From assembly GCA_964016885.1 (NCBI GenBank), contig OZ024745.1, forward strand, positions 81,406,001 through 81,470,000: a stretch of DNA of 64,000 bases. The letters run 5' to 3'. Every line of letters starts with the position of its first letter. The stretch's first letter is position 1. Of the stretch, positions 7,515-60,211 are shown in pieces. Origin of the DNA: Eledone cirrhosa (lineage: Eukaryota). The position numbers and the translations under genes are program-made. Below the pieces are notes generated by a model. That model was not told the DNA's origin, searched no databases, and was given only the letters and a program-made list of their open reading frames with translations.

Positions 7515-8110
<596 letters not shown>

Positions 8111-8990: not shown

Positions 8991-9060
8991 TATATTTTGT
9001 CTGATGAGGACGTACTGAAAAAATAGCACAGTACCTTTGAAATATATATAATAAAGTATA
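8991..9060 (+). ncRNA. Minimal type I hammerhead in 5' pLTR (3' pLTR copy at about 12835-12882 is truncated)
   Basis: 10-bp stem I UAUAUUUUGU/AUAAAGUAUA, CUGAUGA, GUACUG/CAGUAC stem II, GAAA-UAUAUA-UA. Confidence 0.88.
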
Positions 9061-9261
9061 TATTTTGATTATGCGAATATTTTTCATTTGTTAACATTTT
9101 GAATATTAAAAACTCCAGGAAATGTTTTTTTTATCTGTTTAGTGCTTCTGATCTATTGTAAAACTGTATTCGTTGAGTAATCAACGAACCAGATTAATCT
9201 TTGGTCATATTTAGCTCCCAGAAGGTTGGGCGCTTCTTCTGTAATAGATTACTAATAAATG

Positions 9262-11596
9262 ATGGAATTCTTCAGGATTTCTACATCTCTCAAGGATATA
9301 CCAATACCATCAAACGAAGAATATATGAGACAACTTATTTGGAAAAACCAACTCCTTCATAATAAGACTGCGGTGGCGTGCTTTCCACTTTGAAAATAAG
9401 GAGAAAATTGATAAGAAAAACACCAACCATAATTTCGATCATATTTTTAGATCTAGGAAAAATCCTCTATACAACAAACTCTTGGCTCATTTCGAAAACG
9501 AAATTATAAGTATATTAAGGAACATTAAATTTAAAAAAAAAAAACATATTGAGGCCAAGAATACCTCAAGGGTCTAAAGGAAAAAATTAATGACATGCAA
9601 AAAATAAATAAAATATTAGTGAAATCAGATAAAACGAACAACCTATACGGGATGGAAAGAACAAATTATAACGACTTAATTTTAAAAGAATTGAGGAAAA
9701 ATTATAAAAAGGCCCCAAGTGAGGATTTATTGGATATTAATAGTGATGCATTTAAAATTATCACCAATCTTGGAATAGAGCGGAAGACTGAACCTTTCAT
9801 ACCAAAGCAACTGCGGATAAATTTTAAAGACTATAAAAGAAATTTCGAAGAGGACTTACCAGTTAGACTTATAGCACCTTCTAAATCAGATCTTGGAATA
9901 ATTAGTAAAAAATATAATAGATAGGATTTTACCAACACTTAAATTGAGGTCACGGCTAAATCTATGGAAAGGCACTAGTGAAGTCATAGATTGGTTCAAT
10001 AATATCAAAAATAAAAATAATTATAAGTTCATTCGAATGGATATAGCGAGTTATTATTCCTCGATAACTCCTAATCTATTAAATAAGGCGCTATCATTTG
10101 CATATAAACACACAGACCTATCTAGTGATGAGATAAATATTATATTAACAGCAAGGCGAACTTTAATTGATTTTAATAATGATCTTTGGACCAGGGCGGA
10201 TAGACAGAAGAAGTTTGACATTACTCTGGGTTGGTTAGATTCGGCGTAAGTTACAGATCTTGTGGGCATTTTTATCCTTAACATGATAAATAGAAAACTG
10301 TCGGAGATTACCGGAGGTTTATATAGGGACGACATACTATTTATTGTAGAAAAACATAACAATAGCGAATTAAATAGAGTAAAGAAAGTAATTATAGAAT
10401 TTTTTAAAAATTACGACCTGAAATTAGAAGTAGAAAATAATAATAAAATAGTTAATTTTTTAGATGTGACTCTAAATTTGAACTCAGGCCTTTATTATCC
10501 TTTCCATAAAGTCAATGAGAACTTAAATTGTATTAGTTTTTATTCTAATCATCCTAAAAGTGTTAAGAATGCAATAGTCAACAGTGTACAACAACGAATA
10601 TCCAGACTGTCTGCTAATAGATCCATATTTAATAGTAAGGCTGTATATTATAATGAAGCGTTACATAAAGCTGGATATAACAATAATATTGAGTATATAG
10701 AAAAAATACTGAAACTAAAATTAATTATAATCACAGTAATCATAATAAAAATGAATATAAAAACAACAACTTGAATAAATCGGGGAAAAAAATAAGAACT
10801 AGATCTATAATTTGGTATGCTCCGCCAGCATCTTTAGCTATTAAAACACCTGTAGCACATTTATTTTTTAAAGCTTTGGATAAATGCTTCCCTAGGTCAC
10901 ATAAATATTACTCTATCTTCAATAGACACATAGTTAAACTTTCTTATTCAACAACTATGAATATTGCTCAAAATATAGCAAAAAAAAAAAATCTTAAGTT
11001 GAACCAACCTATAATTAGCAACAATATCAATAACAATATATTAGTTAATGGGAATAACAATAATAATAGTTTAAACACGAATAATAGTAGAACACCTTTA
11101 AATAATAATGGGAATAGTTTAACGTCTGTAAATAACACTGAGAAGAAATGTAATTGTAGAAAGAGGTCTGAATGTCTTTTACAAAATAATTACCTTGACA
11201 AAAATCTAGTATATAAATGTACCATTAAGACAAATAATAATATATATAACTACATAGGGGCCACCTCTCTAAATTTAAGGATCATTGGTATAATAATAGA
11301 CACTCTTTCAATAGACCAGATAAGAAATGTTCAACTTCACTTTCACAACTAGTATGGTCTTTAAAGGACAATAATATTAAATACTCCATCTCTTAGACGA
11401 AATTAAAGAATGCTGCTTCCTATCGGAACTCAACTATTTCGCAAATTTGCAATCTTTGTAACCTTGAGATTCTACAGATAATTACAAATTATGACAATTT
11501 AATCAACAAAAAAATGATTTATTTAGTAGTTGTCACCATAAAATTGGTAAAACTTTCCAGGCAATGTACAAGTTTCGAAAAAATATTGACAATTAA
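9262..11596 (+). pseudogene. PLE RT + GIY-YIG ORF, with frameshifts and stops
   Basis: MEFFRISTSLKDIP start; KSDKT, VRLIAPSKSDLG, MDIASYYSSI, GLYRDD, NFLDVTL, SNHP, CNCRKRSEC and VYKC...YIG motifs are spread over ORFs 9595-9924, 9944-10249, 10262-10774 and 10771-11352. Confidence 0.92.
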
Positions 11597-13813
11597 TAAT
11601 TTAAATATATATATATAAGTTTTGCCTTATTGTAGTAATAATTTATTGTTATTTATATGTATTAGAATAATTTCATTAAGAGTCTCGTTTGATTAGGACA
11701 GTTCAATATTTAACTAGACATCAATTATGATATATACAATAGATGATTTATGGCTTTCGTAATATCGCTGGACGTGAGAGTATAGATATGTTATAAATGC
11801 TTGTATAAGTTAAATGAGTTATCTTCCTTTTGTTTACATTGTCCGTAAAAATTTCTTTTTGACTAGCTTGCTAAATTATATTAAATATGTAATATGTAAA
11901 TTAATAATATATAGACTATCATCAAAAGGAAACTATATATCAAAAGAAGTAAATATAACCTTTCATTAAATTAATGAAAATAAACTTTTGAGAGTAAATA
12001 TAACTACAGTTTGATTCTAAATGAATAGTAAAGCTTTTATAAAGAGAATCTCTAAATTAAATTAAATAATTTTGGTAATAAATGATTTAAATATATTATC
12101 TGTATTGATGATGATTTATGCATGGTAATATATTTTAATACATATTTAATAATTATTTAAATAAGCTTTAAAAATTAATTCTCTTAAAGTTGTAACAAAA
12201 TATTTATAGAATATCTTACCTTAAAATTAAAATTGTAATAATCTATATGAGTTAAATTAAATGATATAAATTTATTATTAAATTAAATTATGTGATTGCT
12301 ATAGAAAGTAATCTATACTGAATAATCTTGATATAATATATAAGTATAATTAGCTAAAACATAATCAAATACAAGAGATATTCAATTGTTTATGAATATG
12401 AATAGATTTGTTTATGAATAGATTTGATTTCTTATTTTACCTAGCATTTGAAAACAACGGTTTTTTTTTATTCCCCTCTATTCGGAGTTTCCTTATCTTT
12501 CTCTATTTCTCTTTACTCCCATTCATTCCCTTTTACTATCCCCACACCTTCCCTCTCTTTTGTCGTTATTCCTCTTTTCTTTTTTATATATTTCTTTTCT
12601 TCTTTTATTCATGCATCCATTTCTTTTTTTATTCATTTATCTATTTATGTATGTATTTATTGATTTCTTGCCTTTCCTCTTCTTTACTATATCTCTAATT
12701 TGCTCTACGTCCTTTTGTCTTTAAGTTTATCATATAATTTGTGATATAAAACGTTGAGATTTGATGAAATAAATCACTGCCAATACGGGAATTGAATAAT
12801 CAAGACCGTAGCGGTATGTCATATATCAAATCATATATGTTGTCTGATGAGGACGTACTGAAAAAAACAGCACAGTACCTTTGTACTGAAAAAAAAACAC
12901 CACAGATATGGTCGGTTTAAATGCTAAAGTGTTAAAAGAGAGGACATCTTAAAGCTGATCATTAAAAACTACCAAGATTGGAAATACAATATATGTTGTC
13001 AAAAATCTACCAACTATAAACAAAATGTTTTTGTACATGGAGACTACGAAAGGATTCAACAACAGAAACTTTTAACTGCTTTACAGTTTCCTTTGTTTTT
13101 AATTTTTTATTCATCTTCTTTTGACTTCCGTTGGCCTTCCCATTTTTTTTTTATCTCCGTCTATTTTGCTTTTGTTTCTTATCTGTAAGGGATACTAAAT
13201 CCCCCTCCCTAGTCTGTAAAGGCTTACTAGCTAAACGCGAACGTTTAAATTGATTAAATAAATAAATAAATAAATAGATAAATAGATAAAGCAGTTTTTG
13301 TCTACTCCAAGATAATGTAGGGTTTGAACTCCAGCAAACGGTGTACTCGTCGGTTAAACTGTATCCTTACTACATATAACAACGAACTATGCTTCAAGGT
13401 GGTATCTATATATAAAGGAAAAAAACTTGGCCGTTGATAGTTTAATGCCATTTTTTTGGCAAAATTTAAAGAAACAAAAAATTGATTAAAGAAATCGATA
13501 ATGAATCTCGAAAATTGAACAGGAAAAGCAAGAAAAGAAATATATATAATCAAATTTTATTCTGGCATAGAAATAAATATATTTTTGTCCTCATCTCTTA
13601 ATGATTGTTAGACCGATCAAGTTGTTCAATTACACAAGTTGTTATAAACTTTTGGTTCAACATTGATTATACTGTACTGAATTTTCTCATCAACCAAATC
13701 TACATTGTGTATCTTTCCTTTGTGTACTTGTTGAAAACTGATGAAGTGATGGGATAAAATAGAATAAGAACAATATCTTTCAAAAGGAATCCCTGGTGGT
13801 TTTTGATATTATG

Positions 13814-30005: not shown

Positions 30006-30917
30006 TTCTTCCTGGAGTTCGTGTATAGCTTTCGTCAGCCATCATTTTCTACCTCTTTTACATATTCTAGTTGTTGGACTACGGCTATACTGGGGCACCA
30101 CTATTCTTATTATATTTTAAATGTAGCTTCACGTCTAACAGCGGTAAATAAACTATAATTAATTGGTTGACTGATATCACCACTGTTTTTTTTTACTTTA
30201 TCTTAAATAGATATTTAATTACTTTTATAGTTGTTATTGCAAAACCTTCTTCTTCTTCTTCTTCTTCTTCTTCTTCTTCTTCTTCTCTGTCTCCGCGACA
30301 TCATCTTTCTCCTGCTTCTCCTTCTCCCTCCTTCTTTAAAACCTCTTAAGTTCAAAACAGAAAAAGACGTATTTTAAAGTTTTCGTTTTGTGGCTATTTG
30401 CCATCTTTATTACAAAACAAGTCTGTGTTTTGAAGTAGCTTTCAACAACAACAAAACAAAAACAAAACAAAAAAAATAATAAAAAAATAAACAACAAACG
30501 TTCATTTATTATTTTACTTGTCTCCCTTCATCTTTGGCAATAGTCCAGACCTATCGTTATTTACCCCGAACATTTTCTTAAGCTTCATCTATCGTTTTCA
30601 AATAATACTCAACGTGCGAAGCACTTCTTAAATTGTATTTTCTTTTCTGCTTTTATGATTTTCCGGTACATTTATTTTGAAAGTATTTTGTTTACTTTCA
30701 AAGAAAAATCCTTCATTTTGCTCCTGTTTATATATTCTTGCATATACTATGAAATCTTATAGCATATTTCAGATAATAGTTGGTTATCAAAATACATAAC
30801 GTAGTATATATGTTGAGTTTCTCCTTTTTTGTTTTTAAATAAAGACATAAATATTTGAGAATTGGGTGCTTGTTTGATATATAAATACACCAGTGTTTAT
30901 TCTGATCCACCGGGAGC

Positions 30918-31272
30918 AGATAGCTAGATCATAGTTGATCCACTGAAAGTAGATAGGCAGTAGTTGATCTACTGAGAGCAGAAAGGTCATAGTTGATCTA
31001 CTGATAGTAGATAGATCATAGTTGATCAACTGATAGTAGATAGATCATTGTTGATCATAGTTGATCTACTGATAGCAGATAGATTGTAGTTGATCTACTG
31101 ATAGTAGACAGATCATAGTTGATCTACTGACAGTCGACAGATCATAGTTGATGTTCAAGTAGATAAATCATAGTTGATCTATTGAAAAGAGTACATAGAT
31201 CATAGTTCAACTACTGAGAGTAGACAGATTATGGTTGAACTAATAAGAACACAAAGATCATAGTTGATCTAC
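30918..31272. repeat. About 29-bp hairpin-forming minisatellite, about 12 units
   Basis: Unit TAGATCATAGTTGATCTACTGATAGTAGA, with internal dyad TAGATCA/TGATCTA. Confidence 0.9.
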
Positions 31273-32285
31273 CGAGTGATCCATGATGAAATTACGACAT
31301 CGTTCAATTTAAACTAGGTGATCTGGGTTTAGTCTTTTGTGGAAATTTAATTTCAATCAAAGTAGATGTAGTCAAGATTACTCCCAAAAGTCAATATTTC
31401 CTTCCTACAAATTTTTGAAAATTTCCATCGTTAAAAACTGGGTACGACGTCATTATGGACATTAATTTTCGTTTCTTGAGGCACACTCGGGTCATTATAA
31501 AAATATTCTCGATATAATATATTAAATCATATAATTAAATTTTAAGGAAGCTTCGCTTTATTTTGTATATTCAGGGACTATTCCAAACGTAATTTCTAGA
31601 AGATTGTTTAAGATTCTATTCGCTGTATTCTGGAAGCATTTACCCAGAGGTCATGCACTAGTAGGAAAGTGATCGACCTCGTGCAACATTATATTTCATA
31701 CTGTAGTGTTAGCATACATCTGAGATAATATGAGATGTCAATTTTATGCCTTTTGTGAAATAAGATACAGCTACATACCTCTTGATATGTATAATGTCAA
31801 TGTGTATATGCTTTTTAATATATGTATAACAATTACAAGGAGGGGAGATGGGCACCACCAGCTCTTTCATTTGAAATACCATAATGGACACAAGGTAAAA
31901 TGTCTAGAGTGGCACACCAATGATTGGCTGCAGCAGTTATAGAGAGATGGGCCCCGCCAAGTATTTCTAAGGACCATTGAAATACCCTGATAGACACAGA
32001 AACATTTCTAAAATAGCATCCCAACGACTGGCAGCACCAGTTAAGTTGATTGATTGATTAATAACAATTACACATGGAACATTCATATCTTTAAAACATC
32101 GTATGCAAAAGTGAAGCGAATTGTTTTTGTCACTTTAGAATATGAAATGATGATAAAATGCAACAAAAAATGAATTTAACAGTTTTTTTTTCTTGTATTT
32201 TTACGATGTTATTACTTTAGTTTCAGCGCATGAACTTCAAAGAAGCCCGCCCCCCTTTTAATGAGTAAACACATTCTAATATAAA

Positions 32286-32668: not shown

Positions 32669-32970
32669 TATTGAGTAGTGACTCGCGTTTCGCTATTGAT
32701 CAGGTCAAGGTTCGATCTGTATCGATCTGGACCGACTTTGGAATGAAAATCTCGTCGGTCCTCTGCTGGAGTAATGACAGAATGAACATTACCCCAGCAG
32801 ATGTCCGACGAGCTTTTGATTCCAGAGTCGGTCCAGAGTCGATCCAGGTCGATACAGATCGAACCTTGAGCTAATCAATAGCGAAACGCGCGTCACTACT
32901 CAATAAACGTAATGAAGGCTTAACAAATCGTCCTTTTATTATTATCATTCTGCTTAGTTCTACACCTCTT
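32669..32970 (+). mobile_element. HHR-bearing 3' end with inverted duplication (palindrome 32669-32905)
   Basis: Each arm has CCGACGA...GAAA-CGCG(C/A)G-UC-ACU. Homologous to 1430-1590. Confidence 0.8.
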
Positions 32971-33054
32971 TACATACATACATATTTATATATACTCTAT
33001 TACTCTTTTATCTGTTCCAGCCATCCGGCTTTATATATATATATACATATATAT

Positions 33055-33662
33055 ATATGAAAAAGTTTGTCCTCATCAGTGGCCATCCAACCGTCGTAGG
33101 CATTTCGTCGCATTAAAGGCCATATACCTCAGGTTGGTGCGAGCAACGGCTAAAAAAAAGTCGTTGGGACACGTAAATAAAGGGGACGCTAGGGTAAACA
33201 AACAAAATGGTTTAAGCAGCAGAACTGGGACTTGTTTCCTTCTTCCTCTCTTTCTGCTGCTTAAACCATTTTGTTTGTTTACCCTAGCGTCCCCTTTATT
33301 TACGTGTCCCAACGACTTTTTTTTAGCCGTTGCTCGCACCAACCTGAGGTATATGGCCTTTAATGCGACGAAATGCCTACGACGGTTGGATGGCCACTGA
33401 TGAGGACAAACTTTTTCATATGTAACCCATTTGCAGCGCCGCAGCTCCATTATTATCATATTTACACATATATTTTTTCCTCCGCTGCCACCAGTCTGTT
33501 TCGTTCTTTGTGTCTTTACCCTTTCTAGCAGTCTCTCTCTGTTAGCCTCTTCCTCACCTTTCACTCACTCACTCTCTGTCACTACCTCTCCTCCTCCCCT
33601 TTCTTCCCGTTTGACCTGTCCACAATCCTTTTCTCGCGGGCACTTGGCCAAGCCGGTATGAA

Positions 33663-33725
<63 letters not shown>

Positions 33726-34112
33726 GCGACTTCACAGAACTTATGTTTACCGAATTCGCAGACCAGACCCCTTCTTCCTCCCGTTAGACCTGTGCGAAAT
33801 TCCTTCCTTGCTCACATTTCAACCAGGTTTGATGGTCTTTATTCTCTCGTTCACGATTCCACCGAATTTATATTCATAGAAATCTGGGACTTGTTTCCTT
33901 CTTCCTCTCTTTCTGCTGCTTAAACCATTTTGTTTGTTTACCCTAGCGTCCCCTTTATTTACGTGTCTCAACGACTTTTTTTAGCCGTTGCTCGCACCAA
34001 CCTGAGGTATATGGCCTTTAATGCGACGAAATGCCTACGACGGTTGGATGGCCACTGATGAGGACAAACTTTTTCATATGTAACCCATTTGCAGCGCCGC
34101 AGCTCCATTATT

Positions 34113-34119
<7 letters not shown>
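33055..34119 (+). mobile_element. Non-coding PLE-like element: inverted repeat + two 236-bp direct repeats, 659-bp period
   Basis: 33225-33461 equals 33884-34119, and 33055-33223 is their reverse complement. (TA)n on both sides; no credible ORF. Confidence 0.9.
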
Positions 34120-34170
<51 letters not shown>

Positions 34171-34175
<5 letters not shown>

Positions 34176-34575
34176 GACCATTCGCTATCAATTTTAAAGT
34201 AGTGACTATGTCATTAAACATACGGTATATTGCCAAATATACTATATATACATTCATGTATACATCGCTATTTCAGAGCACCAATACTAATATATATATT
34301 TATGTATATGTATATATAATATATATATATATTTGTGTATATATATACATATGTGTGTGTGTGTATATATATTCTAGGGCAGGTAAAATTCCCGAGAACC
34401 ATGGACGAGTTCTCTGCAGCGGTCTCTGTCTCTCATTATCGCTGCCATGTCCTGCAGGTGTAATGACTTGGGCTTTGGTGTTGGTGTAGAGCAGTGATAT
34501 CAGATCCACTATCTTCTTATATACACACACATATGTATATATATATACACAAATATATATATATATTATATATAC

Positions 34576-34653
<78 letters not shown>

Positions 34654-34766
34654 TAGTATTGGTGCTTTGAAATAGCGATGTATACATGAATGTATGTATA
34701 GTATATTTGGCAATATACCTTATATTTAATGACACTACTTTAAAACTGATAGCGAATGGTCTTCTA
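34171..34766. repeat. Inverted duplication (34171-34365 / 34519-34766) enclosing an RTE 3' fragment (34375-34455, minus)
   Basis: AGAAGACCATTCGCTATCA... pairs with ...TGATAGCGAATGGTCTTCT. The spacer matches the RTE end at 2880-2961. Confidence 0.85.
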
Positions 34767-36410: not shown

Positions 36411-36485
<75 letters not shown>

Positions 36486-36643
36486 AGGAGGTTATAGTTC
36501 ACTTGAAGCATTGTGTAATGAGGTATAAACGTTTGAATATGTGTAATAAGGCCAAAACAATGCAGGTATGGACATAGAAAAAAGAATGCAATAGTGAAAG
36601 ATATTGATGAGAATTCGTCTTTCACCTTGAATTTATTTAAATG

Positions 36644-36680
36644 TCCTTAATTTTCGAGATAATATCTCTTCTTCGGAGGG
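36644..36680 (-). ncRNA. Minimal hammerhead (CCGAAGA core), with copies at 39778-39814 (-) and 43456-43492 (+)
   Basis: CCU-CCGAAGA-A-GAGAU/AUCUC-GAAAAU-UA-AGG. Identical in all three pLTRs. Confidence 0.65.
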
Positions 36681-37087
36681 AAGTAAAGGTCTCAAACCAG
36701 CGTCTTAAATCTCCAGTCAAGCCATGCTGACCGGAAATAGTATATAGTATCTGTTCTAACTCTAATATCAAAGAATTAAAATTAGGTGGATAAAGAGTAG
36801 TCTCCCTTTAAGAGGGGTTTGTTTAGGTTTTGTATTTATTTTTTTTTTTTTATTTTATATACGTGCCTGTATATCTGTGTGGGAGAATGCATGAAGGTGT
36901 AGGTATGTGGGTGTGTGTGTGTGAGTGTGGGAAGATAGGTCTAATCGTAAAAGTGGGGGGTAGGTGTTATCTGGTGTTAGAACTGGTTTTGTGTGTGTAT
37001 GTGTGAGAGAGAATAAGTGGAGGTGTAAGCATGTGTGTGTGCGCGTGCGTGTGTGTGGGGTGTGTAAATATGGGGCTAGAGGCCCTA

Positions 37088-39645
37088 TCAGGTTATAAAT
37101 TGGGTGTTGAGCTCTAGTCTATTATTGATTGGTGGATGTGTTTTATCTATAATAAGTGCTTCCTTAATTCTAAGATTGCCGAGGTTTCTTTCCTTAGTTT
37201 CTATCCTAACTGTTATGTTTTTATCGGTGTTTTTGCATTTAACTCGGTGTTTCTTAAATGAGGAAGCGTTAGTATTGAGGTGTTCTTTTATTCTTATGTG
37301 GAGTGGTCTGGTGGTGCTACCTACGTAGAAGTTGTTGCATTTGTCACACTCTAGTCTGTATACTACGTAAGCCTGGTGGCATAGGTCTGTGTCGTTGATG
37401 GGGCAGTTGGCTAGTCTGCAGCAGTTGTCATGTCTGGTGGAGTGTCTCTTGGCCAGCCGTCCGCGCAGAGAAGGACCCGAGTGGGCCAGTTGGATATCCA
37501 GTCCCTCTCGTCTGATGGCTCTGCGGATGGCTGTTGTTGTTTCTTCACTGAAGTGTGGGAGCTTCAGGAAGCAAGTGTTAGTGACTCGGGTGTGGTGTCC
37601 TCTGTTCTTTCTGGCACGGTTTGTGGTGGATGTCGTGTATCCGTTCAGTTTGAGTACTTCCAGGAAATGTGTGGTGTGTGTGTCTCGGTCTCTGGCGTCG
37701 GTGAATTTGTTCTTGATACGTGCCAGTTCGTTCTTTATGTATCCGAACTTGGCACCGAGTGGGAGGGCCGATCTGAAATGTACGAACAGTCCCTGCTGGC
37801 GGATTTTTTATAGAAGCAGGTGTGGATGTTGACTTCCTCTGTTACCCTGAGTTGGAAGTCCAGTAGGGATAGGGATCCGCGGTCATCGGTGTGTTCCATG
37901 CTGAACTTTATACAGGCGTCCATGCTGGAGAATGTTGTGTATATTTTCTCTGCCTCCTCACGGGATGATGTAAGGATGAGTATGTCATCTACATATCGGG
38001 TGAAGAAGGCATGGGAATGGCAGGTGTTGAGGGCTCGGCATTCTAGCAGGCCCGAAAGGCTGGATCCCATGGGTAATCCTGTTGTCTGTCTGTATGTGTG
38101 GTGGTGGAAGGTGAAGTACGTGTTGTCTACTGTGAAGGACAAAAGCTGGTGTATGTCCGTCGGGTGGAGGCCGTAGCAGTGGATGTTCTCTGCGACCACG
38201 CAGTCCGTCAATAAATCGACAGCTGGGTGAGCGGGGACTGTAGTGTAGAGGGAGACAACGTCGAGGCTAAAAGCGTATTTATTTAGTTTAAGTTGTTCTG
38301 GCTGGAGTTGGTGTAGTCTACGTATAACTTCGTCGGAGCTACTGACATGCCCGGGGAAGGTGGAGAGTAGAGGCTTGAGGACCTGGGAGAGAAGCCAGGA
38401 AATTTTGTATTGGGGTCCTTCTATGCTAGAGACGATAGGTCTTATTTGCGTCTTAGTGCTATTCTTGTGGGTCTTGATGAGGTGGTAGAAAGTGGGCAGT
38501 CTGCTATTTCTAGTGGTGTAGTTGAGCTTAATTTTATTCGGGAGTTGTCTTCTCCTACAGATATCGAAACAAATGGATTTGGTCTGTTTTTCGATTTGGG
38601 CTGCAGTCATGTCCGGGATCACTGTGTACAATTCACTGCCGCTTAGGTGTTCGAAGGCTAGGTTATTGTATGTGGCTTGAGAGATGACGCAGAACTTTTT
38701 ACCTTTGTCGGATGGTAAGTAAATAAGTTCCTTATTCCGTAGGTTCTTCAGGGCGAGTTGTTGTGTCCTGGAGAGGTTAGGGGCCATCTTCTTCTGTTTC
38801 CGTAAGATGTTAAATACGGAATGTTTTAGTCTCGAGAGTTTTTCTTCCAGCTCGCGGTTGGCGGGCGGTGGATAGAGTGGGCGATCTAGTTGGTATATCG
38901 GGAATCTGGGTGTGGTGGATTCCGTGGTGTTGTTGTCGAGAGTCGATATCCATTTCAGTTGGTAGGCAGCCCGACAGAAATTCGTTTCTATGTCGAGCCA
39001 TAGTCTGTCGTCCAGTCTCTGTTTCAATATGAACTTGGGACCCAGGCTGAGGAGATCTAATTCCTCTCGGGAGAGGGATCCTGTCAAGTCTGTGACGAGG
39101 TGTTTTGCGTCAGGTATGTTGTTGGTCGGGGTGCCGCTAGGTTCGGTGTTGGTAACGTATTGTTCGCCTCTGTTGGTGTTTAGCGTTGGGATGTTGTTAA
39201 GACAGTTGGCCGTCCTGAGTTTGAGAAATGTTTGCGTTAGGCGTATTTTCTCGTAGTCTCGGCGGTGGTGGTATGACCTGTCTATAGTGGCGGAGATGAC
39301 CCTGGACAGAGGTTCTGGGGTTTCAGCGAGTTGTGGTACAAGGCTGGAAATAGTCCGTATGTGATGTTGTAGTGTGCGGTGTAGGTGTTGTATGAGTTTT
39401 CTTAGGCAGAATTTTTGTATGTAACTGAGTGATCGTTTGAGGCCTGGTGATTTGAAGCATGTTGGTAGGTGTAAATTTTTGATGGTTTTGGGGATGATGT
39501 TGTTATTCGGGCATCGTTTTAGGAAGTTTATTTGGCAGCCGGCTTTGGCGCGCTTTTCAGATAGCTGGAAGAGTTTCTTTACAGTTGTCAACTGGGCCTA
39601 GCTCAGGCGTAATGAAAGGAGGAGGTTATAGTTCACTTGAAGCAT
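37088..39645 (-). pseudogene. PLE RT + GIY-YIG ORF, near full length, with few lesions
   Basis: 618-aa ORF 37735-39591 (LGPKF, PSDKG, KTHK, IRPIVS, SLDVVSLYT, GLPMGS, RYVDD). ATG at 39645 with an in-frame TAG at 39598-39600, an 8-codon deletion after GLL and a frameshift near 37790. The endonuclease continues to 37088. Confidence 0.93.
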
Positions 39646-40224
39646 TGTGTAATGAGGTATAAACGTTTGAATATGTGTAATAAGGCCAAAACAATGCAGG
39701 TATGGACATAGAAAAAAGAATGCAATAGTGAAAGATATTGATGAGAATTCGTCTTTCACCTTGAATTTATTTAAATGTCCTTAATTTTCGAGATAATATC
39801 TCTTCTTCGGAGGGAAGTAAAGGTCTCAAACCAGCGTCTTAAATCTCCAGTCAAGCCATGCTGACCGGAAATAGTATAGAGTATCTGTTCTAACTCTAAT
39901 ATCAAAGAATTAGAATTAGGTGGATAAAGAGTAGTCTCCCTTTAAGAGGGGTTTGTTTAGGTTTTTTATTTATTTGTTGTTTTTTTTAATTTTATATACC
40001 TGCCTGTATATGTGTGTGGGAGAATGCATGAAGGTGTAGGTATGTGGGTGTGTGTGTGTGAGTGTGGGAAGATAGGTCTAATCGTAAAAGTGGGGGGTAT
40101 GTGTTATCTGGTGTTAGAACTGGTTTTGTGTGTGTATGTGTGAGAGAGAATAAGTGGAGGTGTAAGCGTGTGTGTGTGCGCGTGCGTTTGTGTGGGGTGT
40201 GTAAATATGGGGCTAGAGGCCCTA

Positions 40225-41087
40225 TCAGGTTATAAATTGGGTGTTGAGCTCTAGTCTATTATTGATTGGTGGATGTGTTTTATCTATAATAAGTGCTTCC
40301 TTAATTCTAAGATTGCCGAGGTTTCTTTCCATAGTTTCTATCCTAACTGTTATGTTTTTATCGGTGTTTTTACATTTAACTCGGTGTTTCTTAAATGAGG
40401 AAGCGTTAGTATTGAGGTGTTCTTTTATTCTTATGTGGAGTGGTCTGGTGGTGCTACCTACGTAGAAGTTGTTGCATTTGTCACACTCTAGTCTGTATAC
40501 TACGTAAGCCTGGTGGCATAGGTCTGTGTCGTTGATGGGGCAGTTGGCTAGTCTGCAGCAGTTGTCATGTCTGGTGGAGTGTCTCTTGGCCAGCCGTCCG
40601 CGCAGAGAAGGACCCGAGTGGGCCAGTTGGATATCCAGTCCCTCTCGTCTTATGGCTCTGCGGATGGCTGTTGTTGTTTCTTCACTGAAGTGTGGGAGCT
40701 TCAGGAAGAAAGTGTTAGTGCCTCGGGTGTGGTGTCCTCTGTTCTTTCTGGCACGGTTTGTGGTGGATGTCGTGTATCCGTTCAGTTTGAGTACTTCCAG
40801 GAAATGTGTGGTGTGTGTGTGTCTCGGTCTCTGGCGTCGGTGCATTTGTTCTTGATACGTGCCAGTTCGTTCTTTATGTATCCGAACTTGGCACCGAGTG
40901 GGAGGGCCGATCTGAAATGTACGAACAGGTCCCAGCTGGCGGATTTTTTATAGAAGCAGGTGTGGATGTTGCCTTCCTCTGTTACCCTGAGTTGGAAGTC
41001 CAGTAGGGATAGGGATCCGCGGTCATCGGGGTGTTCCATGCTGAACTTTATACTGGCGTCCAAGCTGGAGAATGTTGTGTATATTTT
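40225..41087 (-). pseudogene. 3' part of PLE ORF (thumb + GIY-YIG), frameshifted
   Basis: ORFs 40782-41063 and 40225-40845 (VVYRLECDKCNNFYVGSTTRPLHIRIKEH). Confidence 0.92.
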
Positions 41088-41339
41088 CCCAAGTTCATAT
41101 TGAAACAGAGACTGGACGACAGACTATGGCTCGACATAGAAACGAATTTCTGTCGGGCTGCCTACCAACTGAAATGGATATAGACTCTCGACAACAACAC
41201 CACGGAATCCACCACACCCAGATTCCCGATATACCAACTAGATCGCCCAGTCTATCCACCGCCCGCCAACCGCGAGCTGGAAGAAAAACTCTCGAGACTA
41301 AAACATTCCGTATTTAACATCTTACGGAAACAGAAGAAG

Positions 41340-43046
41340 ATGGCCCCTAACCTCTACAGGACACAACAACTCGCCCTGAAGAACCTACGGAATAAGGAAC
41401 TTATTTACTTACCATCCGACAAAGGTAAAGAGTTCTGCGTCATCTCTCAAGCCACATACAATAACCTAGCCTTCGAACACCTAAGCGACAGTGAATTGTA
41501 CACAGTGATCCCGGACATGACTGCAGCCCAAATCGAAAAACAGACCAACTCCATTTGGTTCGATATCTGTAGAAGACAACTCCCGAATAAAATTAAGCTC
41601 AACTACACCACTAGAAATAGCAGACTGCCCACTTTCTACCACCTCATCAAGACCCACAAGAATAGCACTAAGACGCAAATAAGACCTATCGTCTCTAGCA
41701 TAGAAGGACCCCTATACAAAATTTCCTGGCTTCTCTCCCAGGTCCTCAAGCCTCTACTCTCCACCTTCCCCGGGCATGTCAGTAGCTCCGACGAAGTTAT
41801 ACGTAGACTACACCAACTCCAGCCAGAACAACTTAAACTAAATAAATACGCTTTTAGCCTCGACGTTGTCTCCCTCTACACTACAGTCCCCGCTCACCCA
41901 GCTGTCGATTTATTGACGGACTGCGTGGTCGCAGAGAACATCCACTGCTACGGCCTCCACCCGACGGACATACACCAGCTTTTGTCCTTCACAGTAGACA
42001 ACACGTACTTCACCTTCCACCACCACACATACAGACAGACAACAGGATTACCCATGGGATCCAGCCTTTCGGGCCTGCTGGCCATCACCTACATGAACCA
42101 GCTAGAATGCCGAGCCCTCAACACCTGCCATTCCCATGCCTTCTTCACCCGATATGTAGATGACATACTCATCCTTACATCATCCCGTGAGGAGGCAGAG
42201 AAAATATACACAACATTCTCCAGCATAGACGCCAGTATAAAGTTCAGCATGGAACACACCGATGACCGCGGATCCCTATCCCTACTGGACTTCCAACTCA
42301 GGGTAACAGAGGAGGGCAACATCCACACCTGCTTCTATAAAAAATCCGCCAGCAGGGACCTGTTCGTACATTTCAGATCGGCCCTCCCACTCGGTGCCAA
42401 GTTCGGATACATAAAGAACGAACTGGCACGTATCAAGAACAAATGCACCGACGCCAGAGACCGAGACACACACACCACACATTTCCTGGAAGTACTCAAA
42501 CTGAACGGATACACGACATCCACCACAAACCGTGCCAGAAAGAACAGAGGACACCACACTTGCTTCCTGAAGCTCCCACACTTCAGTGAAGAAACAACAA
42601 CAGCCATCCGCAGAGCCATCAGACGAGAGGGACTGGATATACAACTGGCCCACTCGGGTCCTTCTCTGCGCGGACGGCTGGCCAAGAGACACTCCACCAG
42701 ACATGACAACTGCTGCAGACTAGCCAACTGCCCCATCAACGACACAGACCTATGCCACCAGGCTTACGTAGTATACAGACTAGAGTGTGACAAATGCAAC
42801 AACTTCTACGTAGGTAGCACCACCAGACCACTCCACATAAGAATAAAAGAACACCTCAATACTAACGCTTCCTCATTTAAGAAACACCTAGTTAAATGCA
42901 AAAACACCGATAAAAACATAACAGTTAGGATAGAAACTAAGGAAAGAAACCTCGGCAATCTTAGAATTAAGGAAGCACTTATTATAGATAAAACACATCC
43001 ACCAATCAATAATAGACTAGAGCTCAACACCCAATTTATAACCTGA
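41340..43046 (+). CDS. PLE reverse transcriptase-GIY-YIG endonuclease, 5'-truncated but uninterrupted
   Basis: The 568-aa ORF has all RT motifs (RYVDD) and the C-terminal GIY-YIG. The frame extends upstream to the inversion junction at about 41088. Confidence 0.9.
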   Translation: MAPNLYRTQQLALKNLRNKELIYLPSDKGKEFCVISQATYNNLAFEHLSDSELYTVIPDMTAAQIEKQTNSIWFDICRRQLPNKIKLNYTTRNSRLPTFYHLIKTHKNSTKTQIRPIVSSIEGPLYKISWLLSQVLKPLLSTFPGHVSSSDEVIRRLHQLQPEQLKLNKYAFSLDVVSLYTTVPAHPAVDLLTDCVVAENIHCYGLHPTDIHQLLSFTVDNTYFTFHHHTYRQTTGLPMGSSLSGLLAITYMNQLECRALNTCHSHAFFTRYVDDILILTSSREEAEKIYTTFSSIDASIKFSMEHTDDRGSLSLLDFQLRVTEEGNIHTCFYKKSASRDLFVHFRSALPLGAKFGYIKNELARIKNKCTDARDRDTHTTHFLEVLKLNGYTTSTTNRARKNRGHHTCFLKLPHFSEETTTAIRRAIRREGLDIQLAHSGPSLRGRLAKRHSTRHDNCCRLANCPINDTDLCHQAYVVYRLECDKCNNFYVGSTTRPLHIRIKEHLNTNASSFKKHLVKCKNTDKNITVRIETKERNLGNLRIKEALIIDKTHPPINNRLELNTQFIT

Positions 43047-43629
43047 TAGGGCCTCTAGCCCCATATTTACACACCCCACACACACGCACGCGCACACACA
43101 CATGCTTACACCTCCACTTATTCTCTCTCACACATACACACACAAAACCAGTTCTAACACCAGATAACACCTACCCCCCACTTTTACGATTAGACCTATC
43201 TTCCCACACTCACACACACACACCCACATACCTACACCTTCATGCATTCTCCCACACACATATACAGGCACGTATATAAAATTAAAAAATAAATAAATAA
43301 ATAAAAAACCTAAACAAACCCCTCTTAAAGGGAGACTACTCTTTATCCACCTAATTTTAATTCTTTGATATTAGAGTTAGAACAGATACTCTATACTATT
43401 TCCGGTCAGCATGGCTTGACTGGAGATTTAAGACGCTGGTTTGAGACCTTTACTTCCCTCCGAAGAAGAGATATTATCTCGAAAATTAAGGACATTTAAA
43501 TAAATTCAAGGTGAAAGACGAATTCTCATCAATATCTTTCACTATTGCATTCTTTTTTCTATGTCCATACCTGCATTGTTTTGGCCTTATTACACATATT
43601 CAAACGTTCATATATATATATATGCATAT

Positions 43630-45628
43630 AAATTACACAATTATCAAAGTTATGTTCAAATCATATTATTGCTGACAATCGTTTCTTCCAAACTTTCGTT
43701 TGGTGTCATCGGAGCATTAGCAATGTTTGTACATATAATTAACCTCCTATTCAACTGAACAATCATATAGATACATATATATTGATGTTGTGAACAACAG
43801 TTTCGTATTTAAAGAGTGGAATGGATGCGACATAGACGAGAATTGTACAATAATTCAAATTAAATTCTGTTGAATAGGAGGTTAATTATATGTACAAACA
43901 TTGCTAATGCTCCGATGACTCCAAACGAAAGTTTGGAAGAAAGATTGTCAGCAATAAAATGATTTGAACATAACTTTGATAATTGTGTAATTTATATTCC
44001 TGCTCTGTAAAACACCTGATGTTATTACATTGAGTTATTTCTCTTACTGGTAATAAATAGTAATAAATTACTGACCTTTCCTGTTTATAGTTGTTTATAG
44101 TATATACATAACTATAAATAGTATCATTATTATTATTAACTGCTCCATACTGTTGAGCTAACATACATTAAATTACAAGTATGCTAATCAAATATTACCT
44201 TCCTATGTCTACTAAGAACATACCAATACCACTCAGAGATACATATGAAAAATGATTGATTAATAGTGTCAACTCTTTTATCAATAGAGTGAGATGGAGG
44301 ACATTCCATTACGATAGAAACCGATCAGACAACAACAGAGATACAAATAATTTCGACTCTTGCAGCTTTAAAACTTTTAAAAGCCTTCCTCACAACACCT
44401 TATTAAACTCTTTTGAACATGATCTAATAAAACTAGTTAAGAACATAAGGTACAAAAAACATCGTAATAGTAACAACACCTTCTTAAACAACCTTAAAGG
44501 ATTTAATAAAAAAAAAAATTCTAGTACATGCAGATAAAACTAATAATATATATAGCTTACATTAAGATACATATAGAAAATTTATATATAAAGAACTACA
44601 TAGGAGCTATAAGAAAACTACTATTAAAAACCTAGAAGATATAAATATAGAAGGCCGTAGTATAGTGTGTAAATTAGGACTTCAGAGACATACACAGCCA
44701 TACACCCCTAACCCCCCCCCCCCCAAGATTCTCTCTGAAGGACCATAAAGAAGACTTCATTAGTAACCCTTCGATAAGACTAATTTGCCCTTCCAAATCG
44801 GACATTGGTATTATCAGCAAGAAAATATTAGATAGAATCATCCCACAGTTTAAGCACAAAATATATCTTAACCAGTGGGGAACTACAGGTGAAGTTATTG
44901 AATGGTTCAAGGATATTAAAGAGAATAAAAATAAAAAATGTATACAATTTGATATCAATTCATACTACACTTCTATTTCCTCTATCCTATTAAATAAGGC
45001 ATTAATTATGGCCTTGAACAACAGTGACCTGACTAGATCCCAAATTGATGTCATCCTTGCGGCCCGAAAAACCATAATTACATTTGAAGATCAATTATGG
45101 ACCCGCAAGCATACACACAACAACTTTGACATAACTATGGGATCTAGTGACTCGGCACAGGTCACTGATTTGGTGGGCCTATATCTACTAAATGAAATTC
45201 ATAAGAACCTACCCTACCTCAATCGTGGTTTATACCGCGATGATGCACTACTCCTTATAGACTATAAAAAATTTAATATAGAAAGAACTAGGAAAGAATT
45301 ACATAAAATTTTCAAAAACTTCAACTTAAGTATCACCTTAGATAAAAACATTAAAAACGTTAACTTCCTTTGCCTGGACTCTAAAATATATACACCCTTT
45401 CATAAACCAAACGAAAAACTAATTTATGTGGATACCAACTATAACCACCCTAAATCCATATTAAACTCAATTACTAAAGGAATATCTAAAAGAATCTCTA
45501 ATCTATCATTTAACGAAACCATATTTAACAATAATTCACAATACTATAATGAGGCCTTAGCTAAATCAGGCCATAAAAATGAGATTGAATTTCTACCTAT
45601 AAAATCACATAGTTACAACATTATTTAG
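43630..45628 (+). mobile_element. Decayed PLE, 3'-truncated, with inverted (43630-43755) and direct (from 43869) pLTR
   Basis: STKNIPIP, RVRWRTFHY, IRLICPSKSDIG, FDITMGSSDSAQVTDLVGL, GLYRDD and NHP motifs over 44181-45628. Confidence 0.9.
43670..43716 (-). ncRNA. Minimal hammerhead (CCGAUGA core), with its inverted twin at 43908-43953 (+)
   Basis: UGCU-CCGAUGA-..CCAAAC-GAAA-GUUUGG..-GAAA-CGAUUG-UC-AGCA. Confidence 0.75.
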
Positions 45629-45680
45629 CGCGAGTTCGTAATTTGAACTTGGGAATTTTATATTCTCCGAGTGAAAAGAT

Positions 45681-45764
45681 CCTTCTGACGAGAGTTTATC
45701 TTTGCAATGGATGCCGTAAGGACTGTCCGTTTATTTTTGAGACTCGAAACCGATTCGGTAAAGG
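45681..45764 (+). ncRNA. Type I hammerhead, extended stem II
   Basis: CCUU-CUGACGA-GAGUUU...AGACUC-GAAA-CCGAUUCGG-UA-AAGG. Confidence 0.88.
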
Positions 45765-45942
45765 TAACCATAGTGAGTAAAGTTAATTTTTTATTTTGAA
45801 ACTTTTTCTTATTTGCTAAACCTTGATTATATATGTTCTGGCTCGTTAATTTATTAACCTGCCTTTGAACCACACTGGCATATGGTTGGACAATACATGT
45901 TTCCCTGAGCGCTTTGTGCGTGTAGGGATATATATACTTTAT

Positions 45943-46002
<60 letters not shown>

Positions 46003-46052
46003 GCACTTTCCTATAAACAAGTGCTATTATGTCTCATATCATTATACCTTTT

Positions 46053-46118
46053 TTTTATCTGAAGAGAACACAACATCTGTCCCAGGATGATTTTGCATTC
46101 GAAATACGTATAATAAAA
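46053..46118 (+). ncRNA. Minimal type I hammerhead
   Basis: UUUUAU-CUGAAGA-GAA...UUC-GAAA-UACGUA-UA-AUAAAA. Confidence 0.85.
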
Positions 46119-46230
46119 TATATGCAACTCTTATAACCATCTTTATTTCATCTTTATTATATATATATAAATAAATAAAAGGTATAGAAAGTATTGTAGC
46201 AAGAAGCCAACAGTTTCCATATATATATAA

Positions 46231-46449: not shown

Positions 46450-46755
46450 ATAATAATAAATTTCAAGACTAAAATCCAAAGAGGGCTCGATAAGGATAAA
46501 TATATATCAAATATATAAGAATCGTAGAGCAAATATTTATTAAAATAACAGATTAAAGTTTAAGCAAAGAATCGCTGCGTTCACCCTTAACGGGATCTTC
46601 TGAAACATATATATATATATATATGCAAAAGTTTTATTTAAAATTGTTGGGTTACAACAAGTAAATATTTTATAACCGATATAAAGCACTCGACAAGTTT
46701 TTGGAGTAGATATACGATAGTAAACAAATGGAAACTATATTTATAAAACCATATT

Positions 46756-46821
46756 TATTTCATTATACATATTTCAGGGATACCATATTAAAAATATGGC
46801 ATGCCTTCGTCAGATAAAATA
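46756..46821 (-). ncRNA. Minimal hammerhead in 3' pLTR, with an inverted copy at 50885-50950 (+)
   Basis: UAUUUUAU-CUGACGA-...-GAAA-UAUGUA-UA-AUGAAAUA. Confidence 0.85.
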
Positions 46822-48456
46822 CAATATATAAACTGTTTTATAAATAATTTAGACGTACCATAAATATAAGCCACCATTAAGGTAGGAAGCTGGCTTGGTA
46901 GTGAGGTGATTATAATTATTTAGTTATAGTGTTAAGCACAGTTAGAAAGAAAGACGGAGAGAAAGAAGAAATGTATGTAAAGAAAAACAGAGAGAAATAG
47001 AGAGAAATAGGGGAGAGAGAAAGAAGGAGGAGGTGAAAAAAGAGAGGCAACCGAATAATAATAATTCACCATACAAATAGAGAGATTTAAGAGAGAGGGA
47101 GTACGGTAATTATTTAGTTATAGTGTTATGCACAGTTAGAGAAGAGACGGAGAGAAAGAAAAAATGGAGATGACGAGAAAATAGAGAGAGAGAGAGGTGG
47201 GAGGAAAAGAAAGAGGGAGAAAAAATAATAATAATTATATAGGGGGAGGTGAAAACCAAGAGAGAAATAAGAGAGAAACATGGGAGGCAAAGTCAAAATG
47301 TCAGATACATAAACGTCATCATATATAAAGAGAGAGGAGAAGAAAGAGCTATATCTAGAGAGAGGGATGATAGAGTTACATCTTTACGTCATGTCCTATC
47401 AATTTGAATTATCAATTCATATGAACTGGGTAATATAATGTAAATATCAATATTCATGAATGAGACATAGATATATTATGTGTGAAAATAATTTTGCTCA
47501 ATAATGACCATATGTTTAGTTTAAAACTCTGAGGTCAATATACCAAAATCTGAAATAAATCTTCAAAAAATTACCCTATTTATAAATACATACACACGCA
47601 TATGCACTTTCTGAAAAAAGAAAAAGAGAAAGTTATGTCAAGCTCTAGTCGATAATACAGACATACACATGACTTTACGTGATCAACTCTATAATTTCTT
47701 GTGTCATAAAGAAATTTCCTTGTGTTATAAAAAATTTCACTATATATATATATATATATATATAAATAAACGATTAATATTCAAGCTCTCACACATATGA
47801 TTATCGTTCATGTATATAATAGTATGCATATCTGTAACATATACAGAACTATACCTACATATATATATACATATATATGTATACACAAGATATCTGCGTG
47901 AGTGTTCCAGCATCTCTATGCACACATACAGGCACATGAACAGATAAAATATACTCTGTAATCTTTCCATATGCATGTTAATACATATGGCCTTTGCATA
48001 GAGATAACCAGATATCAATATATCAGCACAGGAATATCAAAACGTTAAAAATATTAAAAATATCTTCAACACACCCTAGGGTATCTCAGGCCACAAAAAC
48101 AGTATGCTTCATATATTTACCACAGAAATATATCCTTCCAATTTTTTCAGACAATATATTGCAAAGTTTTTTAGAGGCAATCAGAATCAAAAAGCAAATA
48201 AAAAAGCAAAAATTATTTAACAAAAATTATTTAAAGGATTTAGAAGACCCTGTGGTTCTACGGATGCTCTTATATTTAGTATAGAAATTTATCTTGCGTA
48301 AAATTTATTTAATACATTGGGAGCATCTACATTTTAGAGTAGTTTAATTACATCATTTGTTTATATTTATGAAGAAGGTTTAAAAGAAAAAGTTGAAGGA
48401 ATCGAAAGATTTATCGTCAGGTTTCATACATTAATTAAATTTCTTAATTAATTATA

Positions 48457-50684
48457 CTACATTTTAAATTTATATTTATATTTAAACGTTGACTTCAATC
48501 TATGTCTGCAGCAACTGAATAGATTGCTCCTTAGATTAAGGGAATTTTTGGATTTTAATATAAAGAATATCTCCTCCACACAGAGATCACATGTCTCAGA
48601 TGAGGAATTAAAAGGAATCCCTCTTGAGACAATATTCCAAAACATCGAATACCCAACATTATCACGTTTAAGTTGCCAGAGTAAGCTTGATAGCGAAGTT
48701 GAAAATTTTTTGTTTGGATCTGTGAAAGAATTCTTATGATTATTGAAGCGAAGTTTAAATTCTGTCGAGGTGGAACCAACATAGTTGAAAGAATTTAAGT
48801 TAGTTTTAACATTACAATTGTATATTATATTTTTAACTAAGCAATTGTTATTTAACGGACATTTAGATTTATTTCTACAGTTACAGTTATTTAATTTAAT
48901 ATTGTTTGGGTTATTATTGGTATTTTGGTTAGGTTTTAAATTCTTATTATTAATTCTGTTAATATTTTGTGCTAAATTTTTGGTGGACGAGTAAGTTAAT
49001 TTTATAGTATGTCTATTAAAAATTGAGTGATATTTATGTGTTCTAGGGAAGCGTTTGTCAAGAGCATTAAAGAATAGTTTAGCAATTTGGGTTTTAATAT
49101 TTAGTGAGAAAGGGGGGGCAAACCATATTATATTTCTAGTTCTATTTCTGTCCGGCTTTTGGAATTATTGTAATGTTTTCTATTATAGTTGTTAATGTTG
49201 TTACCGTAATTAAAATTATTATTATTATTTTGGTTAGTTTGCTTATTATTATCGATGTACTTAATTTTATCACTATATCCTGCTCTAGCTAACGCTTCAT
49301 TGTAATACTGCGCTTTTTCATCAAATATATTTTTATTAGATGAAATTCTTGAGATTCGCTCTTGAACAGAGTTCACTATAGTATTTTTAACAGATCTGGG
49401 GTGATTAGAGTTAAAATTGACATAATTCAAGTTTTCATTTAGTTTGTGAAATGGATAGTGAAGACATGTGTTGAGATTTAGTGTTACATCTAGGAAATTG
49501 ACTATTCTATGGTTATTCTCTATTTCTATTTTTAGATTAAGGTAATTAAAAAATTGTATAATTTGTTTTCTTTTTCTATTTAGTTCAGAGTTATTATTTT
49601 CAATAAGTAAAAGCATGTCATCACGATATAATCCTCCGGTTACACCTGGTATTTTTCTATGCAGCGAATTAATTATAAATAGGCCCACAAGGTCCGTTAC
49701 CTGAGCTGAGTCAGATGATCCCATAGTTATGTCGAAATTAGTATCTCTATCTGCCCTAGTCCATAGTTGGTTATTAAATGCTATCAATGTTTTCCTTGCC
49801 GATAATATAATGTGCATTTCATTGCTAGTTAGGTCTGTATGTTTGAATGCGTAATTTAGTGCCTTATTCAGTAGATTAGGGGTGATAGATGAATAGTAGT
49901 TAGCAATATCAAGTTGAATAAATTTATTATTATTGTTATATTTAATTTCTTTAAACCACTCAATAACCTCACCAGTCCCCTTCCATAACTTTAAGTAAGG
50001 TAAATTATGTAAGTTTTTAATTTGCTGTATCACTCTGTCTAGAATGTTTTTGCTAAGTTTACCCAGGTCAGATTTTGATGGTGCAATCAATCTGACTGGC
50101 AAATCATTTTCAAAATTTCTTTTGTGATCTTTCATATTGATCTTGGGTTTCCTAGGCATGAAGGGTTGTGTTTTGTTCTCAATGTCTAATTCATGCATTA
50201 TACAAGATGCCTCAGCATTCATTTTTTCCAGTTCGTCCTTACTTGCTACCTTGTACTTTTTCCTTAGTTCTTTCAATATAAGGCCACTATACATGTCGTC
50301 CTTTTGCACTCCATAAAGATTGTTGGTTTTGTCCGATTTCACCAAGATCTTCTCTGTTCTCTCCAAGCCTTCAATATTATCCTTACTGCTTCTTAGATAG
50401 TCCTGGCCTTTGAAGTTTCTCTTGAATTTGATTCCTTGGATGATAGAAATTATATCGTTTTCAAAATCCATTAATAGTTTGTTGGGGGGTGGATTTTTTT
50501 TAGATTTGAAAACTTTATCTAAATCTGAAACATTTTCATTTAGATTAGATTTATCAAAGTGGAAGGCACGCCACCTGATTCTTCTTATAAAAGAGTCTGA
50601 TTTTTCTATTAATTGTTTAATAAAGTCTTTGTTCTTAGGTAAAGGTATGTCTTTTAGAGAAGAAGATATCTTAAAGAATTCCAT
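48457..50684 (-). pseudogene. PLE RT + GIY-YIG ORF with about two frameshifts
   Basis: 518-aa RT ORF 49128-50684 (GLYRDD), continuing through CNCRNKSKCPL, IIYNC...YVGST and CDLC...LNLRSNLFSCCRH to 48457. Confidence 0.93.
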
Positions 50685-51242
50685 TTTTTCAGTTATAATA
50701 TAAAGCTATTTCTCTCTGTTTTTCTTTACATACATTTCTTCTTTCTCTCCGTCTTTCTTTCTAACTGTGCTTAACACTATAACTAAATAATTATAATCAC
50801 CTCACTACCAAGCCAGCTTCCTACCTTAATGGTGGCTTATATTTATGGTACGTCTAAATTATTTATAAAACAGTTTATATATTGTATTTTATCTGACGAA
50901 GGCATGCCATATTTTTAATATGGTATCCCTGAAATATGTATAATGAAATAAATATGGTTTTATAAATATAGTTTCCATTTGTTTACTATCGTATATATAT
51001 ATATATATATATATACAAATATATGTATAAATGTGTGTGTATGTGTATATGTTTGTGTGTCTAAGTGTATGCATATATACATTAATTTACTGAAGACTAC
51101 ACACACTGGAATCCATGCAACGCTAAAATATATAATGACGCGTATGTTTGTGCATCTGCACTAAAGTGTTTTACTAACACATTACGAATATTTTCTTACA
51201 GTTAAAATCTCCAACTGTCCTAGTCTTCATGCACAGATACAT

Positions 51243-55736: not shown

Positions 55737-57441
<1,705 letters not shown>

Positions 57442-58948: not shown

Positions 58949-59024
58949 CATCAACGTTGAGTTTTGCAACTCCGTCAAGTCGATAAAATAAATATGCACA
59001 TATGTAAATAAGGGCTCTGATGCC

Positions 59025-60200: not shown

Positions 60201-60211
60201 CAGTTTAAATT

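Follow-up and report, generated by a model that had tools for sequence, protein, structure and literature searches.

A young non-coding PLE insertion with a predicted permuted hammerhead in its repeats and a probable link to the Naiad clade

A non-coding insertion in a (TA)n tract was, in our probable reading, made recently by the RT/GIY-YIG machinery of the Naiad clade of PLEs, and its repeats bear a candidate non-circularly permuted hammerhead. The insertion has PLE architecture, its repeats contain a complete hammerhead core and six helices with complementary strands, and Naiads too have this set of helices. The insertion itself is ordinary PLE structure, and non-autonomous PLE derivatives are already known; the novelty lies in the ribozyme-like motif and in its connection with Naiads. 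Within the literature covered, a scope outside which most subscription journals fall, the terms 'type-SGC' and 'type-CSG' occur only in PMC10085705, and the works on Naiads and ribozymes were not seen to describe this fold.

Structure of the insertion

The insertion occupies positions 33055-34119 of the window, by which we mean the whole 64-kb stretch of DNA analysed. These are exactly the bounds given in an earlier note on this DNA, which had described an ORF-less PLE insertion with TA flanks, one inverted and two direct repeats, a 659-nt period and a non-coding pyrimidine-rich interior, and had called it young as the repeats differ by only 1-2 nt. Each part of that architecture was recovered here; missing from the description were the tail, the diverged internal duplication, the ribozyme-like motif and the possibility of a truncated 3' UTR. 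The parts are as follows.

33028..33054, no strand: left (TA)n target microsatellite, overlapping the AT end of the inverted arm
33055..33224, - strand: inverted 5'-truncated copy, 170 nt, tail-less, with a whole ribozyme motif inside
33225..33461, + strand: upstream pLTR, a 5'-truncated direct copy with tail, 237 nt
33422..33461, + strand: tail of the upstream pLTR, 40 nt
33462..33883, + strand: pyrimidine-rich non-coding body with (CT)n and a diverged duplication (about 33596-33680 against 33768-33850)
33884..34119, + strand: downstream pLTR, the 3' end of the unit, 236 nt, with its tail at 34080-34119
33354..34011, + strand: predicted cut-to-cut RNA monomer, 658 nt (inferred)
34120..34172, no strand: right (TA)n target microsatellite

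The inverted arm pairs with 33252-33421 over 170 nt without a mismatch, across a 27-nt spacer, and the first direct copy matches it fully. The two direct copies differ only by a C>T substitution (33309/33968) and by one T in a T-run; since one of these two differences is a matter of run length, the period is 659 nt from start to start and 658 nt from end to end. Both direct copies end in the 40-nt tail, which the inverted arm lacks, and (TA)n lies on either side of the insertion, where a target-site duplication is not readable. The insertion thus has direct pLTRs from a partial tandem, an abutting inverted 5'-truncated copy and a tail missing at one end; partial tandems, an inverted 5' copy, a tail of 30-40 bp and (TA)n are given as features of PLE insertions in the accessible text of PMC8557442. 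The same three-part layout is seen in a coding PLE at 36484-43612 (RT with C-terminal GIY-YIG and a DKG motif; young, with copies 97-98% identical), in which two - strand direct copies carry a 40-nt tail and the inverted copy is tail-less. By comparison with this layout, the sense strand of the element is the + strand.

The interior between the direct copies measures 422 nt, is 73% pyrimidine over 33464-33883 and includes a (CT)n run; its diverged duplication has an alignment score of 55, against a maximum of 46 in 1,000 shuffles. A hairpin (33718-33767) lies between the halves of this duplication (33596-33850), and weak splice-like sites across the pLTR-body boundary may mark an intron. ATG frames in the unit reach at most 73 aa, and the RT and GIY-YIG ORF of an autonomous PLE is absent from the element. 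Stop-free frames of 158 and 161 aa run across the palindrome; neither had a Pfam match and the 161-aa frame had no homologue among 104 candidates, and both were dropped as genes. At the 5' end of the unit no coding remnant was found, the best match (25 aa, E 6e-4 among 146 queries) lying on the opposite strand in the tail region. The window contains one copy of the element, and an exact 26-nt pLTR pattern had no match in GTDB, which says little about an animal genome.

A permuted hammerhead motif in the repeats

Each of the three repeats contains the elements of a hammerhead core in the order cleavage site, GAAA, CUGAUGA, which is the order of type SGC. The helices of copy 1 and the positions of the other two copies are listed below.

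33305..33408, + strand: permuted hammerhead, copy 1, with GAAA at 33370-73 and CUGAUGA at 33397-403
33305-09/33404-08, + strand: copy 1 helix X, which begins right after A9 and closes the motif
33310-14/33328-32, + strand: copy 1 hairpin Y, ending just ahead of stem II
33334-38/33364-68, + strand: copy 1 stem II
33339-44/33384-89, + strand: copy 1 joining helix
33347-52/33373-78, + strand: copy 1 stem III
33354-58/33392-96, + strand: copy 1 stem I
33964..34066, + strand: permuted hammerhead, copy 2, with core at 34055-61, GAAA at 34028-31 and predicted cut at 34011/34012
core at 33079, - strand: motif in the inverted arm, predicted to be cut between 33123 and 33122

The numbering of the hammerhead and the pairings of its core follow, in part, general usage. 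The SGC core is complete, with CUGAnGA, GAAA, the A15.1-U16.1 pair and an NUH triplet all present; in copy 1 the triplet is AUA and the predicted cut falls between 33353 and 33354. Helices of 5, 6 and 6 bp and a linker of 5 nt agree with type SGC. The strand right after CUGAUGA, in which stem II would be expected to continue, forms only one contiguous pair, and the 5-bp partner of stem II lies upstream; the unbroken Block C of type SGC is therefore not found in the window motif, where helices X and Y break into it at A9/G10.1. When all six block orders were scanned on both strands of the window, SGC was found solely in the three repeats.

Types SGC and CSG cleave in vitro, and in type SGC a further helix connects the far ends of stems I and II (PMC10085705, accessible text). 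The window motif shares with these types the S-G-C order, the full core, stems I-III, the short S-to-G linker and the joining helix, but differs in the upstream partner of stem II and the interrupted Block C, which PMC10085705 assumed to be uninterruptible. It also differs in its setting, an animal retrotransposon, whereas SGC is described there from metatranscriptomes only and CSG from five soil-DNA sequences; according to the same text, none of these RNAs lies in the genome of a known organism, one bacterial GCS candidate excepted. The pseudoknot hammerhead with helix IV (PMC11300833, accessible text) resembles our motif in combining a core with extra helices and pseudoknotting; however, there G10.1 follows A9 and the pseudoknot replaces helix II, and the block order and the extra helices are other than those found here.

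The only substitution between the copies turns a C-G pair into a U-G pair. Among 20,000 dinucleotide shuffles of the unit, none gave SGC with stems I and III of at least 5 bp and an upstream stem II of at least 5 bp. With the two core words fixed, stems I and III of at least 5 bp arose in 63 of 50,000 shuffles; with the cores fixed, four helices were in place in 1 of 200,000; X and Y appeared together at their predicted places in 698 of 100,000. All of these counts are optimistic, because the descriptors were written after the motif had been seen.

In unconstrained ViennaRNA folding, hairpin Y, the joining helix and stem III formed at a probability of 0.82-0.97. Stems I and II are pseudoknots and lie outside what nested folding shows; stem I and helix X had a probability of 0.02 or less in the nested ensemble, because pseudoknots are not representable there and because their 3' strands pair in a hairpin with the tail region. 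An alternative 11-bp helix (33322-32/33380-90) reached 0.06 or less. An alternative register of stem II (33329-33/33365-69) had a probability of 0.00, against 0.06 for 33334-38, and the latter was used because the former competes with Y. The weak point of the motif is position 10.1, which is C33333 opposite C11.1 (C33369), where the whole Naiad L001 described below and Naiad consensus ends have G-C; in the model, G33332 or G33404 could substitute at 10.1.

No type I, II or III hammerhead was found in the element or in the circularised unit, on both strands and across the circular junction and allowing up to one core deviation, with a descriptor that recovered 3 of 10 control regions and is thus not fully sensitive. 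At the gathering threshold Rfam gave no match in the whole window. Rfam is insensitive here, because it also missed the plain type I hammerheads of neighbouring PLEs, none of which reached the gathering score (seven sites were found in one descriptor scan and eight in another). With E relaxed to 10, the region 32900-34300 gave 28 hairpin-shaped or low-complexity matches and no ribozyme family. Inspection by eye, together with Rfam to E 10, revealed nothing convincing of twister, pistol or HDV-like folds in the element. Naiad-1_Movir carries what we take to be a twister-like word.

Relation to the Naiad clade

Naiads are described as lacking a canonical hammerhead, with half cores and GAAA noted on either side, and the accessible text of PMC8557442 lists only 'HHR_core' or 'HHR_half_core' matches for them. 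The element likewise has no canonical type I hammerhead and lies in a (TA)n target, and it shares with the clade the partial tandem, the inverted 5' copy and the 40-nt tail. It also shares its 3' RNA helix set with Naiads, a yardstick of our own rather than a published one: the set was computed for L001 and read by eye in 6 of the 53 consensus ends. It differs from the clade in having no ORF, in its youth and in having no sequence similarity to any Naiad compared: none of five short motifs occurred in the Naiad supplement, blastn gave no match in 22 Naiad-like loci (see below), and no Naiad ORF is present in the 64-kb window. In our judgement, a Naiad-type 3' end is highly likely.

The computed comparison comes from a scan of GTDB with a Naiad RT motif, which yielded 22 loci, most likely eukaryotic contamination. 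One of them, L001 (386-5845), is a whole Naiad in a contig of a bacterial genome bin, with two 904-nt pLTRs that are 99.4% identical; it is assigned by domain order and motifs (N-terminal GIY-YIG, CxC and DKA), its Pfam scores being below the cut-off. The six helices of the window motif are all present in both pLTRs, arranged in CSG order; here X and Y form closed hairpins, and the two lie in an insert of 29 nt that separates A9 from G10.1. One motif of L001 lies at 749-900. The helices pair at 5/5 (I), 6/6 (II), 4/4 (III), 11/12 (joining helix), 5/5 (X) and 6/6 (Y) positions, the register of stem II having been chosen by eye before each of its pairs was checked, and the motif arose in 1 of 20,000 shuffles. 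L001 and the window motif have no meaningful primary sequence in common; the window form is the L001 form opened in helix X. The remaining 21 loci gave no match to the motif, and six of these (L002, L005, L006, L008, L013 and L021) end within 232 nt of the end of the reading frame. Rfam at the gathering threshold, run on 16 of the 22 loci, returned five tRNA matches only.

The supplement of PMC8557442 has 54 Naiad consensus sequences, and for 53 of them, all but Naiad_Cmel, the final 300-400 nt were read by eye. The open-X form was seen in six ends whose sequences differ (Bfor, Amil, Anas, Aacu, Obim and Ovul) and which span three independent lineages; stem I has only 2 bp in Bfor, and Aacu has three mismatches. 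A clean type CSG was seen in six others, all from nematodes (1_Nbra, 2_Nbra, 3_Nbra, Hcon, Hpol and Asuum). In the stretches read, the other 41 ends show no complete motif, with parts in Esco, Darwinula and spider families. The motif was thus seen in one of 22 loci and in 12 of 53 consensus ends, so not all Naiads carry it. The bivalve and hemichordate Naiads (PMC8557442, File S5) and four loci (L003, L009, L016 and L018) have a different conserved 3' motif in place of the hammerhead-like one. Because the only published CSG sequences came from soil DNA, it might be speculated that these ribozymes derive from nematode Naiads. The accessible text of PMC8557442 describes cephalopod Naiads as long-inactive remnants, with which this young insertion is at odds if the host is an octopus.

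Origin of the unit and possible mode of propagation

In the mechanism that we propose, the insertion consists of a single 658/659-nt unit, ahead of which lie a direct copy truncated at its 5' end (the pLTR) and an inverted copy that lacks the tail. As the motif occurs twice in the same orientation, 658 nt apart, an excisable RNA of that length is predicted: a + strand transcript starting in the upstream pLTR would fold both motifs and cut after 33353 and 34011, freeing a 658-nt monomer. The ends of the monomer would stay held by four helices across the cut (X, II, the joining helix and III; 22 bp), and because these helices span the cut, the ends could rebuild the motif and ligation to a circle would be favoured. 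The Naiad RT, supplied in trans by an autonomous Naiad, would then copy the circle or jump templates for more than one round at the (TA)n nick and so leave a partial tandem, as in a model proposed for PLEs (PMC4209133, accessible text). Transcription beginning further upstream would leave copy 1 buried in the 170-bp hairpin. That all of this holds at once, with an active hammerhead of a topology not seen in the literature covered and typical of part of the Naiad clade and a mobile ORF-less Naiad parasite replicating via a ribozyme-cut, re-closed circle, is unlikely.

A self-standing non-autonomous element has, in our judgement, an even chance of being the right reading of the unit, the odds of a non-autonomous family being much the same as those of a truncated Naiad 3' UTR. 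Under the second reading, which comes a little short of even, an autonomous Naiad would have left its 3' UTR here in one abortive event, as two 5'-truncated copies plus an inversion; the ribozyme finding would stand, but the mini-element family would fall. Such an origin would agree with the 3' UTR of L001, which is at least 980 nt long and has 472 nt from stop to core; in the present unit, 593 nt separate the start from the core. It would also agree with the PLE 3' UTRs in the window, which reach 75-76% pyrimidine and one of which has a diverged internal duplication like that of the unit body (46913-47029 against 47107-47219), with the abundance of ORF-less PLE 3' fragments in the window and with the single copy of the unit. 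However, a truncated 3' UTR requires a template jump from an internal truncation point, whereas the usual PLE form is a full-length copy preceded by a truncated one (PMC8557442, accessible text), and in all three PLEs examined that have a direct upstream pLTR (8809-12883, 36484-41087 and L001) the whole ORF region is included in the downstream copy; that no coding remnant was found where the unit begins also argues against it. For the self-standing element there are parallels in Chlamys, a sister clade with known non-autonomous PLE derivatives, of which MRC1 is an example: these too are ORF-less, make pLTRs and need a PLE with an N-terminal EN, but they come from green algae and are multicopy and active, whereas the window element is known from one copy (PMC8557442, accessible text).

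The earlier note had proposed a PLE-parasitic retrozyme family. The non-coding unit with the same-strand ribozyme-like motif twice, 658 nt apart, and the PLE-like ends agree with that proposal, and animal retrozymes have been proposed to derive from pLTRs (10.64898/2026.07.22.740005, accessible text). Like non-LTR retrozymes (PMC7229834; 10.64898/2026.07.22.740005), the element is a non-coding unit between two, here predicted, same-strand ribozymes, with PLE-derived ends and a possible circle. In the classical sense the proposal does not hold, since the scans of both strands and of the circular junction, with one core deviation allowed, found no hammerhead of type I, II or III. Animal retrozymes are defined by type I hammerheads and consist of tandem units whose monomers or circles are highly self-paired (PMC7229834, accessible text); here the motif is permuted, only one whole unit is present, the body is weakly paired (the predicted circle is 44% paired, z -2.1, with 1 of 60 shuffles as stable), and no Rfam ribozyme family appears to E 10. 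A classical retrozyme with abundant, highly paired circular RNA is therefore improbable. Still less probable is that the motif arose by chance in a MITE-like palindrome or that the assembly duplicated the sequence; the single locus in a microsatellite-rich region and the commonness of isolated CUGAnGA would suit this, but the shuffle controls and the independent recurrence in L001 speak against chance, and the tail asymmetry common to the adjacent coding PLE is predicted by neither a MITE nor a mis-assembly. A decayed or non-catalytic motif, either a Naiad 3' protein-recognition structure or a ribozyme that lost its activity through the C-C at 10.1/11.1, in a copy that was dead on arrival, is rather unlikely. 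Besides C33333 opposite C33369, the competing folds favour it, as does the locking of copy 1 in the 170-bp hairpin of a transcript starting upstream, and metazoan PLE hammerheads are often poor cutters in vitro (PMC4209133; one of nine constructs in 10.64898/2026.07.22.740005; accessible text of both). On the other hand, no other core position departs from the canonical form in any of the three near-identical copies, the sole substitution leaves U-G in place of C-G, and a mismatch or extra base at 9/10.1 is common in PLE hammerheads (PMC4209133, accessible text). We rate it as slightly more likely than not that the motif would be active in this copy.

If many Naiads bear scrambled hammerheads that standard descriptors and Rfam miss, self-cleavage would look like a general step in PLE transposition. 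Non-circularly permuted hammerheads, so far host-less environmental sequence in the accessible text of PMC10085705, would be placed in animal genomes and acquire a biological role; a hammerhead form with an interrupted core would be added. The young ORF-less unit would also point to a still-working Naiad and, possibly, a retrozyme-like parasite that uses another ribozyme.

PLEs are densely packed in the window, and several of them have DKT motifs like the Hydra clade; for the ORF at 41184-43043, the closest named relatives are Octopus bimaculoides proteins at 61-62% identity, which makes an octopod a likely host. Type I hammerheads with a palindromic helix III are found at eight sites in the PLE copies at 4623-6072, 7542-8101, 8809-12883, 15883, 44300-46124 and 46607-50999. 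ORF-less palindromic or inverted-repeat MITE-like elements lie at 4254-4624 and 43626-43997, at 32669-32905, at 34209-34734 and at 55940-57391. The window also holds a 29-nt minisatellite (30898-31297), a degenerate C/A-rich tandem array of 2 kb with units of roughly 20 nt (about 58960-61130) and, on the - strand, a non-LTR retrotransposon fragment with a zf-RVT domain (62591-63961).
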